From: Arcobacteraceae bacterium
GTDB taxonomy: Bacteria; Campylobacterota; Campylobacteria; Campylobacterales; Arcobacteraceae
Assembly (NCBI GenBank): GCA_048268245.1
Contig: JBLWVX010000028.1
Coordinates: 1 to 34,353, forward strand
DNA length: 34,353 nucleotides
Direction: 5' to 3'
Positions 6,427 to 18,067 of this stretch are shown here, one piece after another. Each line of letters opens with the position of its first letter. Position 1 is the first letter of the stretch. A model generated the notes under the pieces. That model was given only the letters and a program-made list of their open reading frames with translations, was not told the DNA's origin and made no database searches. A program made the translations under genes and the position numbers.

Positions 6427-6930
6427 ATGGCAAAAGCTAAAGAACATCAATTTGATATTTCTGCAAAACTTGATATGCAAGAGATGAAAAATGCAGTAAT
6501 TCAAGCTCAAAAAGAGATAGATAATAGATACGATTTTAAAGGTATCACAAAAGAGATTGATTTTAATCAAGGAGCTAAGACTTTAACTTTAATAAGTGCT
6601 AGTGATAATAAAATTGATGCGATGAAAGATATTTTAATTTCTAAGATGAACAAAAGAGGTTTATCAATTAATTCCCTTGAAGAGTTAAAAGCAGAAGATT
6701 CAAGTGGTGCAAATAGAAAGTTCATATATAAAATTATTGATACTATAGAAAAAGATGAAGCAAAAACAATTCAAACTGAAATTAAAAAACTAAAATTAAA
6801 AGTAACTGCTGTAAATCAAGGTGATGAGATAAGAGTTACAGGAAAAAATATCGATGACTTACAAGCTGTAATGAAACATTTAAAAGGTTTAGAGTTAAAA
6901 GCACCTCTTGTTTTTGATAATTTTAGATAA
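6427..6930 (+). CDS. yajQ: YajQ family nucleotide (c-di-GMP)-binding protein
   Basis: FDIS, NRYDFKG, QGDEIRVTGK.IDDLQ, C-terminal FDNFR. Confidence 0.95.
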   Translation: MAKAKEHQFDISAKLDMQEMKNAVIQAQKEIDNRYDFKGITKEIDFNQGAKTLTLISASDNKIDAMKDILISKMNKRGLSINSLEELKAEDSSGANRKFIYKIIDTIEKDEAKTIQTEIKKLKLKVTAVNQGDEIRVTGKNIDDLQAVMKHLKGLELKAPLVFDNFR

Positions 6931-6933
6931 AAA

Positions 6934-6982
6934 TGAAATTTAATTGTAATTAATCTGAAATTAATTGTAATTTATGTATAAT
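6934..6982 (+). promoter_or_regulatory. Four phased TGWAAT direct repeats plus a TATAAT -10 box
   Basis: TGAAAT 6934, TGTAAT 6945, TGAAAT 6956, TGTAAT 6966 (spacing 11, 11, 10), then TATAAT 6977-6982. Confidence 0.65.
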
Positions 6983-6988
6983 TACCAA

Positions 6989-7280
6989 GTTCAGAAAGGA
7001 TAGTGTGATAGAAGACTCCTGAAGAAATAGTTTTGAAAATAAGTCTTAACCCTTAGTTTTCTGTTAATAAACTTAATATTTTAATCCACTTCTATCTATC
7101 TTTTTTGTTATTGTAATGAAGTGGACTATGTAAACATAGTTGTAGTTTTTATACTTTTACTGCAACGCCAATAATAGGTTATTATATAATACTTTATATG
7201 AATTCTTCTTTCTTTTGTAGTGACCTAATACTCTTTAATATACCGAACTACATAGTCTTTACTTCATTTATTACAAGGAA
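6989..7280 (+). ncRNA. Candidate structured non-coding RNA or long 5' leader, family unknown
   Basis: No long ORF; stems 6992-7014/7089-7107, 7035-7043/7052-7061, 7111-7132/7249-7276, 7139-7146/7159-7166 and 7175-7186/7216-7227; non-Watson-Crick positions are G-U on the + strand. Confidence 0.55.
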
Positions 7281-7286
7281 TCTAGC

Positions 7287-8072
7287 TTGGAACTTTTAAT
7301 AATAAAATCTATATCTGTTGTAATACTAGTTTTGACTCTTAGTTTTATTGCAGAGAAATTAAGCCCTAAAATCTCAGGTGTTTTATCAGGACTTCCTGTA
7401 GGCAGTTCTATTACTCTTTTATTTTTTGCAGTAGAGAATGGTGTAGATTACGTAACTAATGTAGCTTTGTATAATATTCATGGTTTATTTGCAGCACTTG
7501 CATTTTGTATAGGCTATTATATTAGTACTTTTTATAAAGGTAAATTAGAAATTTCAATGAGTATTTTAATCTCTTTCGTTTCTTACCTTTTAATTGCATA
7601 TATTATATCTTTTATTCCTCCACATATAATTTTTACACCTTTAATTGTTATAATATTAATGTTAATCTCATCAGTATATTTTGCAAAGAAAGAGAATCAT
7701 GCAATAGAAAAAAAAGAAAAAGTCTCTTTTTTTGATTTAGTTTTTAGATCTATTCTTACAATAGGGATTTTTTTAACTGTTTCAAGTTTACCTAAATATG
7801 TAGACCCTAATCTTGCTGGAATTTTTTCAGCTTTTCCTACTATTTTATTACCCTTATTATTGATAATTCATTTTAGACATAGTAATTTACAAGCTAGAAC
7901 AATAATAAAGAATACACCTTTTGGTTTAAGTTCAGTTGTAATTTATTCATTAGTAGTTTTTTATACATATGAGTCTTATGGGATTTTAATAGGAACAATT
8001 TTAGCTTTTGTAGCATCTGTTGTTTATATATTAATTCAAACTAAACTAATGAAAATTTTCAAATTAATCTAA
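7287..8072 (+). CDS. Uncharacterised membrane protein (about 8 TM) with an internal duplication, GlpM/DUF3147-like halves
   Basis: Hydrophobic; repeated motif AEKLSPKISGVLSGLP vs PKYVDPNLAGIFSAFP; TTG start after AAGGA. Confidence 0.7.
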   Translation: MELLIIKSISVVILVLTLSFIAEKLSPKISGVLSGLPVGSSITLLFFAVENGVDYVTNVALYNIHGLFAALAFCIGYYISTFYKGKLEISMSILISFVSYLLIAYIISFIPPHIIFTPLIVIILMLISSVYFAKKENHAIEKKEKVSFFDLVFRSILTIGIFLTVSSLPKYVDPNLAGIFSAFPTILLPLLLIIHFRHSNLQARTIIKNTPFGLSSVVIYSLVVFYTYESYGILIGTILAFVASVVYILIQTKLMKIFKLI

Positions 8073-8130
8073 TTTACAAGAAATAAACAAAATTATATTA
8101 TAATATCTCATATTTATAAATAGGATATAT

Positions 8131-8790
8131 ATGAGAGTACTACTATTAGAAGATGATATGGCATTAAATGATTTGCTAAGTGATCATTTGGAAGACAAAG
8201 GTTATGATGTTACTTTATGTACAAATGGACAAGAAGCACTAGAGTACTTAATTGATGAAAAATTTGATTTTGCTTTACTTGACATAAATACTCCAATAAT
8301 GACCGGAATTGATGTTTTAAAGACTATAAGAGAAGACTATAAAAATAGTACTCCTGTAATAATTCTTACTGCTTATCAAGATACAAAACATTTAAAAGAC
8401 TCTTTTGAAAATGGTGTTGATGACTATATAAAAAAGCCCTTTGATTTAGAAGAGTTAGACCAAAGAATCATGAAACTTTGTAGACAGTTCTTTATTGAAC
8501 AAAATAGTAATATACAAATTGATAATAATATATTTTTCGAACCTGATTCATGTTTGATTTCATTAAATGAGAAAAGTGTAAGTATTGCACAAAAAGAAAG
8601 AGATATTTTAAAGTATTTTTGTAACCATAGAAATAGGGTAATTTCTAGTGAAGAACTACTTCAAAATATTTGGGCTTATGAAGATATGCCAACTGATGCA
8701 ACTATTAGAGTTTATATAAAAAATTTAAGAGAAATTATTGGAAAAGACAGAATAAAAACTATTAGAGGAATAGGGTATAAATTTGAATAA
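8131..8790 (+). CDS. OmpR/PhoB-family DNA-binding response regulator
   Basis: LLEDD, phosphoacceptor LLDIN, DDYIKKPF, winged-helix TIRVYIKNLR...IKTIRGIGY; TATAAT at 8099-8104. Confidence 0.95.
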   Translation: MRVLLLEDDMALNDLLSDHLEDKGYDVTLCTNGQEALEYLIDEKFDFALLDINTPIMTGIDVLKTIREDYKNSTPVIILTAYQDTKHLKDSFENGVDDYIKKPFDLEELDQRIMKLCRQFFIEQNSNIQIDNNIFFEPDSCLISLNEKSVSIAQKERDILKYFCNHRNRVISSEELLQNIWAYEDMPTDATIRVYIKNLREIIGKDRIKTIRGIGYKFE

Positions 8791-9985
8791 AAATGAAAGA
8801 AAAGCCCTTATTAGTTTTCTTAGTATTTACATTGGTTCAGCTATACTTTTAATTAGTATTATGCTTTATTTATACTACAACAATGAAGTTCGTATGTTAA
8901 AAGATAGTTGTAGTATGGAAATAAGTAGTGTTTCTATGGAAATAAAAAGTGAAATACTTGATAGTTATATGAAAAACAAAAGATTTATTCCTAAAGATTA
9001 TGGAAGTGATCATATAAGATATGCTTTATATGATGAAAATAAAAAGCTATTATATTCAAGTTTAGATGGTGAAAAGTACGTTGATTTATCAAAAAGCAAA
9101 TATGTAGAAGATATATATAATTTTTATATTGTAAAACTAAATGAACCCTCTGTTCCTACTGAATATATTGTTTTAGAGTCTTGTAGAGAGTATCAAGATA
9201 CAAACAAATTAAAAATATATATTATTGTAATTCTTATATTAAGTGCTGTATTTATTGGAATAATTGCTTACTTGTTAGCTAAGATTTTATTAAAACCTGT
9301 ACGAGAAAAAGTAGAGCATATGGATAGATTTATAAAAGATTCTGCCCATGAGTTAAATACTCCTATTTCTGTTTTGATGACATCTGTCTCAATGCTTAAA
9401 AAAGGTAAAAATCCTGAAAAAATGATGAAGTATATTTTAAGTAGTTCAAAACAAATATCTCAGATTTATAATGATATTCATTTTTCTGCTTTTAATGCTT
9501 CAAATGAAGATGTAATAGAAGAGTTTGATTTAAAACAGTTGGTTCAAGAAAGTGTTGATTATTTTAATGATATTTCAATTACTAAAAACATTGAAATTAA
9601 AACACATTTAGATGATTGTATTTTATTTATGGATAAAACAAAAACACAAAAAATTGTAAATAATCTGATTTCAAATTCAGTTAAATATAGTCATAACAAT
9701 TCAATTGTTGAGGTTAGTATAAAACATAATACTTTAAGTGTAAAAGATTTTGGAGTAGGTATTTCCCAAAAAGAGCAAAAAGAGATTTTTAAAAGATATA
9801 AAAGAGGTAGTAATAATATTGAAGGTGGTTTTGGAATCGGTCTTGATATTGTAAAAAGAATATCAAATGAATATGGTTTAAAATTACAGTTAGACTCAAA
9901 GATAAATGAGGGTACTACTTTTTATATAGATTTTTCATCTGTGATTATAGGTGCAAAGTGTGATATTAAAGATAAAGAAATTTAA
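8783..9985 (+). CDS. Sensor histidine kinase
   Basis: Two TM segments, H-box AHELNTP, N-box NLISNSVKYS, G1 DFGVGI, G2 GFGIGL; overlaps the regulator. Confidence 0.95.
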   Translation: MNKNERKALISFLSIYIGSAILLISIMLYLYYNNEVRMLKDSCSMEISSVSMEIKSEILDSYMKNKRFIPKDYGSDHIRYALYDENKKLLYSSLDGEKYVDLSKSKYVEDIYNFYIVKLNEPSVPTEYIVLESCREYQDTNKLKIYIIVILILSAVFIGIIAYLLAKILLKPVREKVEHMDRFIKDSAHELNTPISVLMTSVSMLKKGKNPEKMMKYILSSSKQISQIYNDIHFSAFNASNEDVIEEFDLKQLVQESVDYFNDISITKNIEIKTHLDDCILFMDKTKTQKIVNNLISNSVKYSHNNSIVEVSIKHNTLSVKDFGVGISQKEQKEIFKRYKRGSNNIEGGFGIGLDIVKRISNEYGLKLQLDSKINEGTTFYIDFSSVIIGAKCDIKDKEI

Positions 9986-15471: not shown

Positions 15472-16305
15472 TTATAATTCTACTGCTGTTTTAGTTCTAT
15501 GAGCTTCTTTTACTTTTTCGTATGCTTCACAGTACTCTTGTGCTTCAGTATCGTGTTTTAAAATACCTGTAGGGAATAATCCTGTTTGCTCTTCAGCTTC
15601 TAATTTATCAAATTTAGCTTTACCAATTGAGATAGATTTAATCCACTCTAAGTTAGCCATAGCTGTAGCCATTTTATTTTTTCTTCCTAAGTTAACGTGA
15701 CAGTTAGAGAATACTTCAATAAATGAGAATCCTTTATGTTGGAAACCTTTAACTAAAACTCTTTCAAGTTTTTTAGGATCTAACATAGTTTCTCTTGCTA
15801 CGAATGATGCACCAGCAGCTTCAACTAATTTACAAGCATCAAATGTAGGATCAATATTACCTCTACTCATTGTAACTGTCCACATACCTTGAGGAGTAGT
15901 TGGAGAAGTTTGTGAGTTTGTTAATCCATAAATGAAGTTATTGATAATAATGTAGTTAAGATCAATATTTCTTCTTGATGCATGAATTGTATGATTTCCA
16001 CCAATAGCAAGACCATCACCATCACCACCAACAACAATAACTTTCTTTTCAGGGTTTGCTAATTTAATACCTGTTGCATATGCTAATGTTCTACCGTGAG
16101 TTGTATGTACTGTATTACAGTTGATGTAAGAAGAGAATCTTCCTGAACATCCAATACCAGAAACAACACAAACGTCATCCATATTCCAACCAGTTTTTTC
16201 AATGGCTCTAATTACAGATTTTAAAATAACTCCATCACCACATCCCCAACACCATAGTGTTGGCATTTTGTCTGTTCTTAAATATTCATCATAATTAAAT
16301 GCCAT
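15472..16305 (-). CDS. oorB: 2-oxoglutarate:acceptor oxidoreductase beta subunit
   Basis: WCWGCG, SGIGCS, TPP-binding GDGD...NN. Confidence 0.95.
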   Translation of the reverse strand: MAFNYDEYLRTDKMPTLWCWGCGDGVILKSVIRAIEKTGWNMDDVCVVSGIGCSGRFSSYINCNTVHTTHGRTLAYATGIKLANPEKKVIVVGGDGDGLAIGGNHTIHASRRNIDLNYIIINNFIYGLTNSQTSPTTPQGMWTVTMSRGNIDPTFDACKLVEAAGASFVARETMLDPKKLERVLVKGFQHKGFSFIEVFSNCHVNLGRKNKMATAMANLEWIKSISIGKAKFDKLEAEEQTGLFPTGILKHDTEAQEYCEAYEKVKEAHRTKTAVEL

Positions 16306-17447: not shown

Positions 17448-17774
17448 TTACGCCTCATCTTCATCTAAAATTCTATAGTTATTTTTAATAACTCTTTCTT
17501 TTCTATCTTTTGCCTCATCTGTTAATTTAGCAAATTTAAACTCTTTTCTATCTGCTACATAAATAGCAAAATCTGGACATGCAAGTTCACAGTCAGTACA
17601 GCCAATACATGAATCAGGATGAACAACTTTGATCATAGAACCTAAAGTTGAAGTAACCTCTTGTCTCATAGCAAGAACACCAGCTGGACAAACAGAAACA
17701 CACTTGTCACATGCTTTACATCTATCTTCATTCACCCAAACAGGAGTGTTTGCAGGAGCTTCCATATTAGACAT
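17448..17774 (-). CDS. oorD: 2-oxoglutarate:acceptor oxidoreductase delta subunit (2x[4Fe-4S] ferredoxin)
   Basis: Two CxxCxxCxxxCP motifs; first gene of the operon. Confidence 0.93.
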   Translation of the reverse strand: MSNMEAPANTPVWVNEDRCKACDKCVSVCPAGVLAMRQEVTSTLGSMIKVVHPDSCIGCTDCELACPDFAIYVADRKEFKFAKLTDEAKDRKERVIKNNYRILDEDEA

Positions 17775-17900
17775 AATTTCCCCTTATTATTTTTTGTTTA
17801 TCAATAGTTGATTAATTTTCAATTATTATTGTTGAATGATAACCTATATAACATCTAATAATTAATTAAAACTCGTATTTTAAATTCTTAATTTCTCTAT

Positions 17901-17939
17901 TGTTACATTTTGCTACATGAATTTTTAAAGTGTATTATA
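17901..17939 (-). promoter_or_regulatory. Putative oor promoter (-10 on the minus strand at 17934-17939) with tandem TGYTACAT boxes
   Basis: TGTTACAT at 17901 and TGCTACAT at 17911, 10-bp period; ATTATA reads TATAAT on the minus strand. Confidence 0.5.
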
Positions 17940-18035
17940 AGTGGCTTAAAAACTATATTTTAGCTTAATTATTAATGCTAATTTTATACTAAAAGTTATG
18001 GTTAAAATAGGTTTAAAATTTATCTATGATTTTTT

Positions 18036-18044
18036 TGATATAAT
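18036..18044 (+). promoter_or_regulatory. Extended -10 promoter of the methyltransferase-trpC operon
   Basis: TGaTATAAT then AAAGGA RBS. Confidence 0.7.
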
Positions 18045-18067
18045 ATCTAAAATAATAAAGGATAGTT

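Follow-up and report, generated by a model that had tools for sequence, protein, structure and literature searches.

Contig JBLWVX010000028.1, analysed here over 34,353 nucleotides (nt; hereafter the window, whose coordinates are used throughout), carries between yajQ and a membrane protein gene that we call mem a long gap (6931–7286) made of an older mem gene. The gap comprises the ancestral mem promoter, its ribosome-binding site, its start position and the decayed codons 1 to ~112, and a complete copy of mem stands immediately downstream. The relic itself (6989–7276, + strand), recognised by covariance model (CM), blastn, tblastn, conservation and fold z-score, is predicted to adopt a two-domain RNA fold and is nearly unchanged in five species of one Arcobacteraceae genus. 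We give even odds to the reading that this gene fragment was recycled and is conserved by selection as a structured leader at the 5′ end of the mem messenger RNA (mRNA). A preliminary description, made from the sequence alone, had taken the region for an RNA of unknown ancestry; it is instead a relic of the 5′ third of the adjacent gene, with most of its helices inherited from the mem mRNA.

The yajQ–mem gap as a relic of mem

Five genomes of genus g1 carry the element: the window genome (G000) and G001, G002, G003 and G004. A CM, R1, built from these five copies and searched against 151 genomes of the family matched seven of them, namely the five copies themselves and two genomes of genus g6, G116 (E 4.8e-7) and G071 (E 4.0e-6). 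The G071 match falls inside an intact mem coding sequence (CDS; 251–261 amino acids, aa) that follows yajQ after a short spacer, and the G116 match aligns at the same place. Two collinear blastn blocks connect the element to the g6 mem locus: element positions 5–130 align with intergenic sequence and the 60 nt at the start of the gene (72.6% over 135 nt, E 2.3e-10), and positions 273–342 with nt 290–360 of the gene (74.6% over 71 nt, E 1.5e-6). A MAFFT alignment extends the homology to the g6 gene over the whole length of the element, with about eight deletions, not all multiples of three, and in tblastn one reading frame of the copy in G003 still aligns with mem residues 41–119 (E 2.6e-4).

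The position of the extra sequence points the same way. Outside g1, the distance from the end of yajQ to mem is 65–97 nt in 11 loci; only in g1 is it ~356 nt, and the additional ~280 nt sit exactly at the ancestral position of the 5′ end of mem, after yajQ and the promoter. They include a dead ribosome-binding site, AAAGGA (6995–7000), and a dead start position, ATA (7008–7010), and at about 7274 the relic is joined to the ribosome-binding site of the complete mem copy. Intact mem occurs in 33 of the 151 family genomes and in 10 of 22 genera (in g6, 3 of 11 genomes), so the gene is not the orphan that it had been called. The relic is closer to the intact genes of G116 and G071 (identity 0.62 and 0.60, respectively) than to its own neighbour mem (0.55). 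The pair of relic and intact gene may have arisen by partial tandem duplication or by allelic replacement, and the sequences are too diverged to decide between these origins.

The gap has also ceased to encode protein. On a crude map of open reading frames (ORFs) in the window its 356 nt form the longest intergenic gap, the next longest being 17775–18067 (293 nt), and it holds a single ORF of at least 25 aa (7198–7299, 33 aa), which agrees with the earlier remark on a longest gap without a long ORF. The ancestral reading frame is destroyed: stop-to-stop frames differ among the five copies and none has a conserved start. No ORF is conserved across the five copies on either strand, and a hidden protein gene in the gap was accordingly rejected. 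The ATG of the 33-aa ORF is ATA in G004, its C-terminus differs in each species, and in G004 the peptide has 18 aa.

Sequence constraint and predicted fold

Invariance was scored as identity in all five g1 genomes, with codon figures taken from 24 CDSs. In the relic, 225 of 288 positions (0.79) are invariant, compared with fractions of 0.766, 0.874 and 0.416 at the first, second and third codon positions, respectively, and 0.08–0.70 in nine other fully covered intergenic regions; the relic ranks highest among such regions. A neutral pseudogene evolving at the rate of synonymous sites would be expected to lie near 0.416 rather than 0.79, and pairwise identity at four-fold sites of the flanking genes is 0.43–0.92, against 79–94% for the element. 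The relic is therefore not decaying freely and is under strong nucleotide-level constraint. Its longest invariant run covers 44 nt (7201–7244; permutation p = 0.00025) and takes in a CU-rich loop, the 3′ strand of a 12-base-pair (bp) stem and a junction strand. All third-frame positions of this block are unchanged, and the constraint thus acts on nucleotides, not on a peptide. Variable columns number 36 of 152 among paired and 50 of 145 among unpaired positions; the excess among unpaired columns is modest, so the constraint is not explained by structure alone, and loops and junctions are constrained too. Elsewhere in the window, the gap at 17775–18067 is 0.64 invariant across the five genomes, and the CDSs at 15472–16305 and 17448–17774 contain unusually long invariant runs of 71 and 51 nt, with high third-position invariance of 0.60 and 0.67, respectively.

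On the + strand, the segment 6989–7286 has a predicted minimum free energy (MFE) of -60.6 kcal/mol and a z-score of -2.81, with 2 of 200 dinucleotide shuffles folding as well; the corresponding figures for the - strand are a z-score of -0.27 and 75 of 200. The + strand thus beats its shuffles, and the asymmetry between strands fits the argument for a + strand RNA that the preliminary description had drawn from G–U pairs. All helices named in that description appear in both the ViennaRNA MFE structure and the centroid of 6989–7286 on the + strand. Domain 1 (6992–7107) has an interrupted closing helix (6992–7014/7089–7107) and inner hairpins. Domain 2 (7111–7276) is a three-way junction with a closing helix (7111–7132/7249–7276) and hairpins at 7139–7166 and 7175–7227; its GTTGTAGT/ACTGCAAC hairpin and its 12-bp stem are both predicted. 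The closing helix of domain 1 pairs the dead ribosome-binding site and the dead ATA start position with 7089–7107.

The five orthologous copies have z-scores of -3.9 to -5.9 (60 shuffles each). When 64 nt of the downstream gene are added (6989–7350), both domains persist and the z-score falls to -1.39. In that extended fold the live ribosome-binding site and TTG start of mem lie outside both domains; the former forms a weak local 4-bp stem in the MFE structure only and is unpaired in the centroid, and control in cis of the live ribosome-binding site by the fold was therefore not seen in 6989–7350. A search of the whole window against Rfam 15 (4227 models) returned no match at the gathering score, and at E ≤ 10 a single meaningless one, snoR128 (E 8.9, 18.4 bits against a gathering score of 40). 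A known RNA family was rejected on both thresholds, in line with the earlier statement that no known riboswitch could be recognised.

RNAalifold on the five copies predicted 76 pairs, four of them with compensatory changes. In a model-fitted alignment of the five copies, 96% of cells are paired, and pairs with double changes number five, against 1.6 ± 1.1 in shuffles (2 of 500 reach five) and 0–2 in slid controls. In domain 1, pairing stands at 83.6% for helix 1 and at 100% for helix 2, which has one double change; the closing helix of domain 2 is 98.8% paired, with two double changes; and the 12-bp stem is invariant. An example from G004 is the replacement of GAC/GTC by AGC/GCT in the closing helix of domain 2, and relative to the g6 gene the relic has GAAG/CTTC in place of GAAC/GTTC and GAAGT/ACTTC in place of GGAGT/ACTCC. 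The covariation that the preliminary description proposed to look for amounts to a few compensatory changes among five sequences, all within one lineage and on an alignment fitted to the model.

Ancestry of the fold, promoter region and states among relatives

Much of the predicted fold can be traced to the coding sequence. The homologous 370-nt segments of 29 intact mem genes have z-scores from +1.6 to -3.5, the extremes on the stable side being G116 (-3.5) and G071 (-3.2); the four intact g1 copies score +0.3, -0.2, -1.45 and +1.6, and the relic copies are more extreme than any of the 29. The MFE structures of the intact G071 and G116 mRNAs contain the same helices as the relic. In these two genes (loci L044 and L043, respectively; oriented coordinates 1473–1650) a helix of ~27 bp pairs the ribosome-binding site and an ATA start with codons ~38–47. 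This duplex reaches -26.5 kcal/mol and ranks first of 46 windows in both genes, whereas the corresponding duplex reaches -16.9 kcal/mol in G086 and -8 to -15.5 kcal/mol in the other 27 genes. In G071, G116 and the relic alike, the predicted partner of the AAAGGA ribosome-binding site is a UCUUUUUU tract lying ~100 nt further downstream.

At homologous columns of G071, 52 of 80 relic pairs can form, against 30–42 of 79 when the columns are slid, with a shift of alignment register lowering the count for helix 2; for the closing helix of domain 2, 20 of 22 pairs can form at the homologous CDS columns of both G071 and G116. The deletions in the relic fall in interior segments, such as the inner hairpin in the loop of the 12-bp stem, and the closing helices are kept. 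By these predictions, the fold is largely inherited from the parent mRNA, and the helix in G071 and G116 may itself be a translational control element lying within coding sequence.

A separate observation concerns the start codon of mem. Eight of the 30 intact mem genes, from genera g6, g10 and g18 (loci L043, L044 and L051–L056), have ATA where the others have an ATG or TTG start, at oriented coordinate 1501 (1498 in L054). A good AAAGGA ribosome-binding site precedes the ATA, whose reading frame runs on into the conserved N-terminus (I)ELLIIKSI; the first canonical start in these genes would remove ~10 conserved residues. Translation of these eight genes may therefore begin at ATA.

Turning to the promoter region, a consensus scan found CTGAAA-16-TATAAT at 6955–6982 (+ strand), scoring 10 of 12, with the -10 element at 6977–6982 and a predicted start near 6989. 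The site is kept in all five g1 copies, as the variant TAAAAT in G004, and is homologous to the promoter region of intact mem in genus g6; we assign it as the putative ancestral promoter of mem. Just upstream of it and overlapping its spacer, two AATTGTAATT direct repeats (6942–6951 and 6963–6972, + strand, read from the sequence) stand 21 nt apart, or two helical turns. All five g1 copies conserve them, the same pattern can be made out ahead of intact mem in G071 and G116, and they may form a binding site for a regulator, for example the OmpR-type regulator encoded downstream. No promoter-like site was found on the - strand within 6989–7286 by the consensus scan.

Contigs from four public sequencing runs offer weak hints of transcription. 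A salt-marsh metatranscriptome yielded a 229-nt contig wholly inside 7018–7245, with three differences. A wastewater run labelled RNA-Seq contained both a contig bridging 7074–7399 and a relative in which 210 nt replace 6931–7437, i.e., a relic-free form, and in another run a 1506-nt contig extends across yajQ, the element and mem. The 5′ end near 6989 anticipated in the preliminary description agrees with the conserved promoter-like site, and transcription of the region is weakly hinted at by these contigs.

The flanking genes are all on the + strand. Upstream, and outside the element, yajQ (6427–6930) encodes a YajQ-family cyclic di-GMP-binding protein (Pfam DUF520, E 7.2e-52; NCBIfam equivalog PRK05412, 172.5 bits against a cut-off of 146), as had been surmised. 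Directly 3′ of domain 2 come the live ribosome-binding site AAGGA (7275–7279) and the TTG start (7287–7289) of intact mem (7287–8072), whose 261-aa product has a weak Pfam match to DUF3147 (24.2 bits against a cut-off of 23.6) and no match in NCBIfam. It is followed, within 8073–9985, by an OmpR/PhoB-type response regulator (8131–8790) and a histidine kinase (8783–9985), both identified by Pfam and NCBIfam. These two genes have a promoter-like site of their own in 8073–8130; its TTTACA...TATAAT region is retained in genera g1, g6 and g18, with conservation in G004 as well. In genus g20 (loci L045–L050) the order is mem, then yajQ, then the response regulator.

The whole gap, promoter included, was found in four of the five other species of the genus, at 94, 92, 90 and 79% identity. 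BLAST of 61 relatives gave, outside the genus, only fragments of at most 84 nt (E 5.8e-5 or weaker); a metagenome scan with a 20-nt invariant word returned one contig, near-identical to the G001 copy, and a scan of genome contigs returned three records, none of them a new copy. The order of element identity (G001 > G003 > G002 > G004) is that of genome divergence, which suggests vertical descent under constraint rather than recent transfer.

Two species document losses at the locus. In G004, the most divergent carrier, yajQ and mem are missing and the order is permease, element, response regulator, kinase; promoter and relic are kept despite the loss of both flanking genes. There, the deletion of mem is precise, its ends being two short AATCTA repeats that lie immediately ahead of the TTG start and at the stop codon, and a six-U tract follows the closing helix of domain 2, a tract that is poor in G000 and absent in G003. 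G005 lacks yajQ, the promoter, the relic and mem, together with the region in which the regulator's promoter usually lies, and a xanthine/uracil permease gene is followed by the response regulator within about 20 nt. A search with this yajQ as query did not find the gene elsewhere in G004 or G005. Since G005 keeps the two-component genes after losing the whole element, the element is dispensable for them; a role as leader of the two-component operon is unlikely, given this operon without the element and the regulator's own promoter-like site.

Possible functions of the relic and known systems

Regulatory recycling of the relic appears probable because it is near-unchanged and stably folded in five species, and we propose the following course of events for a leader. 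The old mem promoter would probably still fire near 6989, making the relic the first ~288 nt of the transcript. The long helix of domain 1 would sequester the ribosome-binding site and start position that are now dead, and domain 2 would end one base before the live ribosome-binding site, leaving it accessible. Selection would keep both the fold and the long unpaired stretches nearly unchanged in the five species. The leader could then stabilise the mRNA or regulate it from its 5′ end and, in addition, prevent initiation at the dead site, and in G004, which has no mem, the relic would persist as a free-standing RNA.

Several observations weigh against this proposal. The region is not enriched for promoter-like sites (7 found, 7.7 expected), and a scan of the region, in G000 or G004, found no terminator-like site. 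The covariation comes from five sequences, with all five double changes lying, by inspection, in the most divergent copy, G004, and the structure itself guided the alignment behind their count. The fold leaves out the live ribosome-binding site and start, and no alternative conformation or known aptamer core was found. The transcription hints are contigs from RNA-labelled libraries, possibly containing DNA and carrying no strand or end information. Other intergenic regions of the genus are well conserved too (up to 0.70 invariant), so third codon positions may overstate how far the relic departs from neutrality. To these are added the modest difference between paired and unpaired columns and the retention of the two-component genes in G005 without the element. 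Finally, foldability alone is no proof of an RNA function, because the fold comes largely from coding sequence.

A more tentative extension, which we hold to be possible but doubtful, is that the locus shows an RNA gene caught being born, an ancestral fold like that of the G071 and G116 mem genes having been freed from coding duty and subsequently maintained and tightened by selection. In the ancestral mem mRNA, the first ~340 nt would already have formed a regulatory fold that locks a non-canonical ATA start together with its ribosome-binding site; this segment would have been released from coding by partial duplication or by allelic replacement; and interior deletions and double changes that retain helices would have brought the z-score from about -3.3 to between -4 and -6. 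What results would be a regulatory RNA in its own right, driven by the old promoter and able to survive the deletion of mem as in G004.

A leader is not the only form that a functional RNA could take here. The relic might instead give rise, from the old mem promoter, to a free-standing small RNA (sRNA) of ~290 nt acting in trans, which would end or be processed after the closing helix of domain 2 and whose invariant single-stranded stretches, for example the CU-rich loop at 7201–7217, would pair with mRNAs or bind a protein. Such an sRNA would account for the promoter and relic that G004 retains without the flanking genes, for its six-U tract after the closing helix, for the long invariant unpaired segments, typical of seed or protein-binding regions, and for the one metatranscriptome contig that covers the element alone, and it would have a precedent in OxyS. 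The missing terminator-like site in G000 and G004 and the poor or absent U tract in G000 and G003 speak against it, as does the contig that bridges the element into mem, though that contig is no proof of a single transcript. Moreover, when duplexes of four conserved unpaired segments with the start and ribosome-binding regions were evaluated for the 40 ORFs of the window (this window rather than the genome), no target stood out locally. We consider the trans-acting sRNA unlikely, and the two sRNAs allowed for in the preliminary description are without support.

The relic could also lack an RNA function altogether, its fold being a leftover of complementarity within the parent coding sequence and its conservation the product of slow intergenic evolution or of constraints at the DNA level such as the promoter, regulator-binding sites and spacing. 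The same helices occur in the intact G071 and G116 genes, which fold well themselves; other intergenic regions reach 0.64–0.70 invariant; the direct repeats suggest protein binding at the promoter; and G005 has lost the whole region. Set against these points, invariance of 0.79 is sustained over 288 nt, at the top of the fully covered intergenic regions and with a 44-nt run within it; the relic z-scores lie beyond those of all 29 intact genes; and double changes preserve pairing. The deletions took interior segments and spared the closing helices, and the G–U pairs and the strand asymmetry of the z-score point to RNA, not DNA. An inert remnant is, on this balance, improbable.

A ligand-sensing riboswitch leader controlling mem, the leading idea of the preliminary description, retains very little credit. 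The three-way junction with its conserved junction strand, directly upstream of a ribosome-binding site, and the lack of a match to any known family would suit a novel riboswitch, but the element descends from coding sequence, occurs in a single genus (5 of the family's 151 genomes) and persists in G004, where the gene to be regulated has been deleted; no expression platform was found in it, neither a terminator-like site nor a fold that occupies the live ribosome-binding site. The earlier suggestion of an undescribed riboswitch-like leader or sRNA therefore holds in part: a functional leader or sRNA is the best reading, and the hallmarks of a riboswitch were not found.

Type I toxin loci typically produce highly structured mRNAs of ~250–300 nt with sequestered ribosome-binding sites, and the 33-aa ORF (7198–7299), whose hydrophobic sequence is left over from a transmembrane segment, would suit a small peptide made from a heavily folded mRNA, as in the type I toxins of Campylobacterota. 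Such a peptide is scarcely credible here, since neither the start nor the C-terminus of the ORF is conserved, no ribosome-binding site precedes its ATG, the unchanged third positions of the invariant block indicate selection on nucleotides rather than on a peptide, and no antisense promoter was found inside the element.

The comparison with start-locked mRNAs is instructive in another respect. Starts locked by long-range pairing with downstream coding sequence are a feature of hok-type and other type I toxin mRNAs, and pairing between a Shine–Dalgarno sequence and a U tract is known from fourU-type elements. Similarly, in the relic and in G071 and G116, the start position lies in a helix adjoining the AAAGGA pairing; unlike in the toxin mRNAs, the start locked in the relic is dead, and neither a conserved peptide nor an antisense partner was found. 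With the cis-regulatory 5′ leaders and riboswitches in Rfam the relic shares a long conserved fold between a promoter and a ribosome-binding site, together with conserved junction nucleotides; it differs from them in matching none of the 4227 models, in having no expression platform and in its coding-sequence ancestry. For genome scans, the lesson is that folded, conserved "orphan" intergenic regions should be compared with neighbouring genes before a riboswitch is called. As in ordinary pseudogene fragments left by partial tandem duplication or allelic replacement, the homology is collinear, deletions break the frame and no intact ORF remains. Ordinary remnants, however, decay at about the neutral rate, whereas the relic is 79% invariant across five species, against 42% of third positions, and keeps its helices through double changes.

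The closest parallel is the sRNA OxyS: Krieger et al. (2022; PMC8825220) trace its evolution to part of a peroxidase mRNA and report that it kept the parental regulation. Like OxyS as described there, the relic derives from the 5′ part of a protein-coding gene, retains the promoter of its parent and persists as a non-coding locus at the ancestral position, and would therefore stay under parental regulation. It would differ in its size of ~290 nt, in its two large domains and in its restriction to a single Arcobacteraceae genus, and is known here from sequence; among the matches listed in a literature search on Arcobacter small RNAs and transcription start sites, none concerned this locus by title or abstract. 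The acquisition of new regulatory RNAs by bacteria is poorly documented, and OxyS, the clearest case, was reportedly inferred after its parent gene had vanished. Here, by contrast, a complete copy of the parent family still stands immediately downstream of the relic, and one family holds side by side the intact fold-bearing gene (G071 and G116), the relic with an intact gene (four species), the relic alone (G004) and a clean deletion (G005). This evolutionary series is unusually complete, the RNA function of the relic being a proposal, and it would allow the step from coding sequence to constrained non-coding RNA, which in OxyS was reconstructed after the event, to be tested directly.

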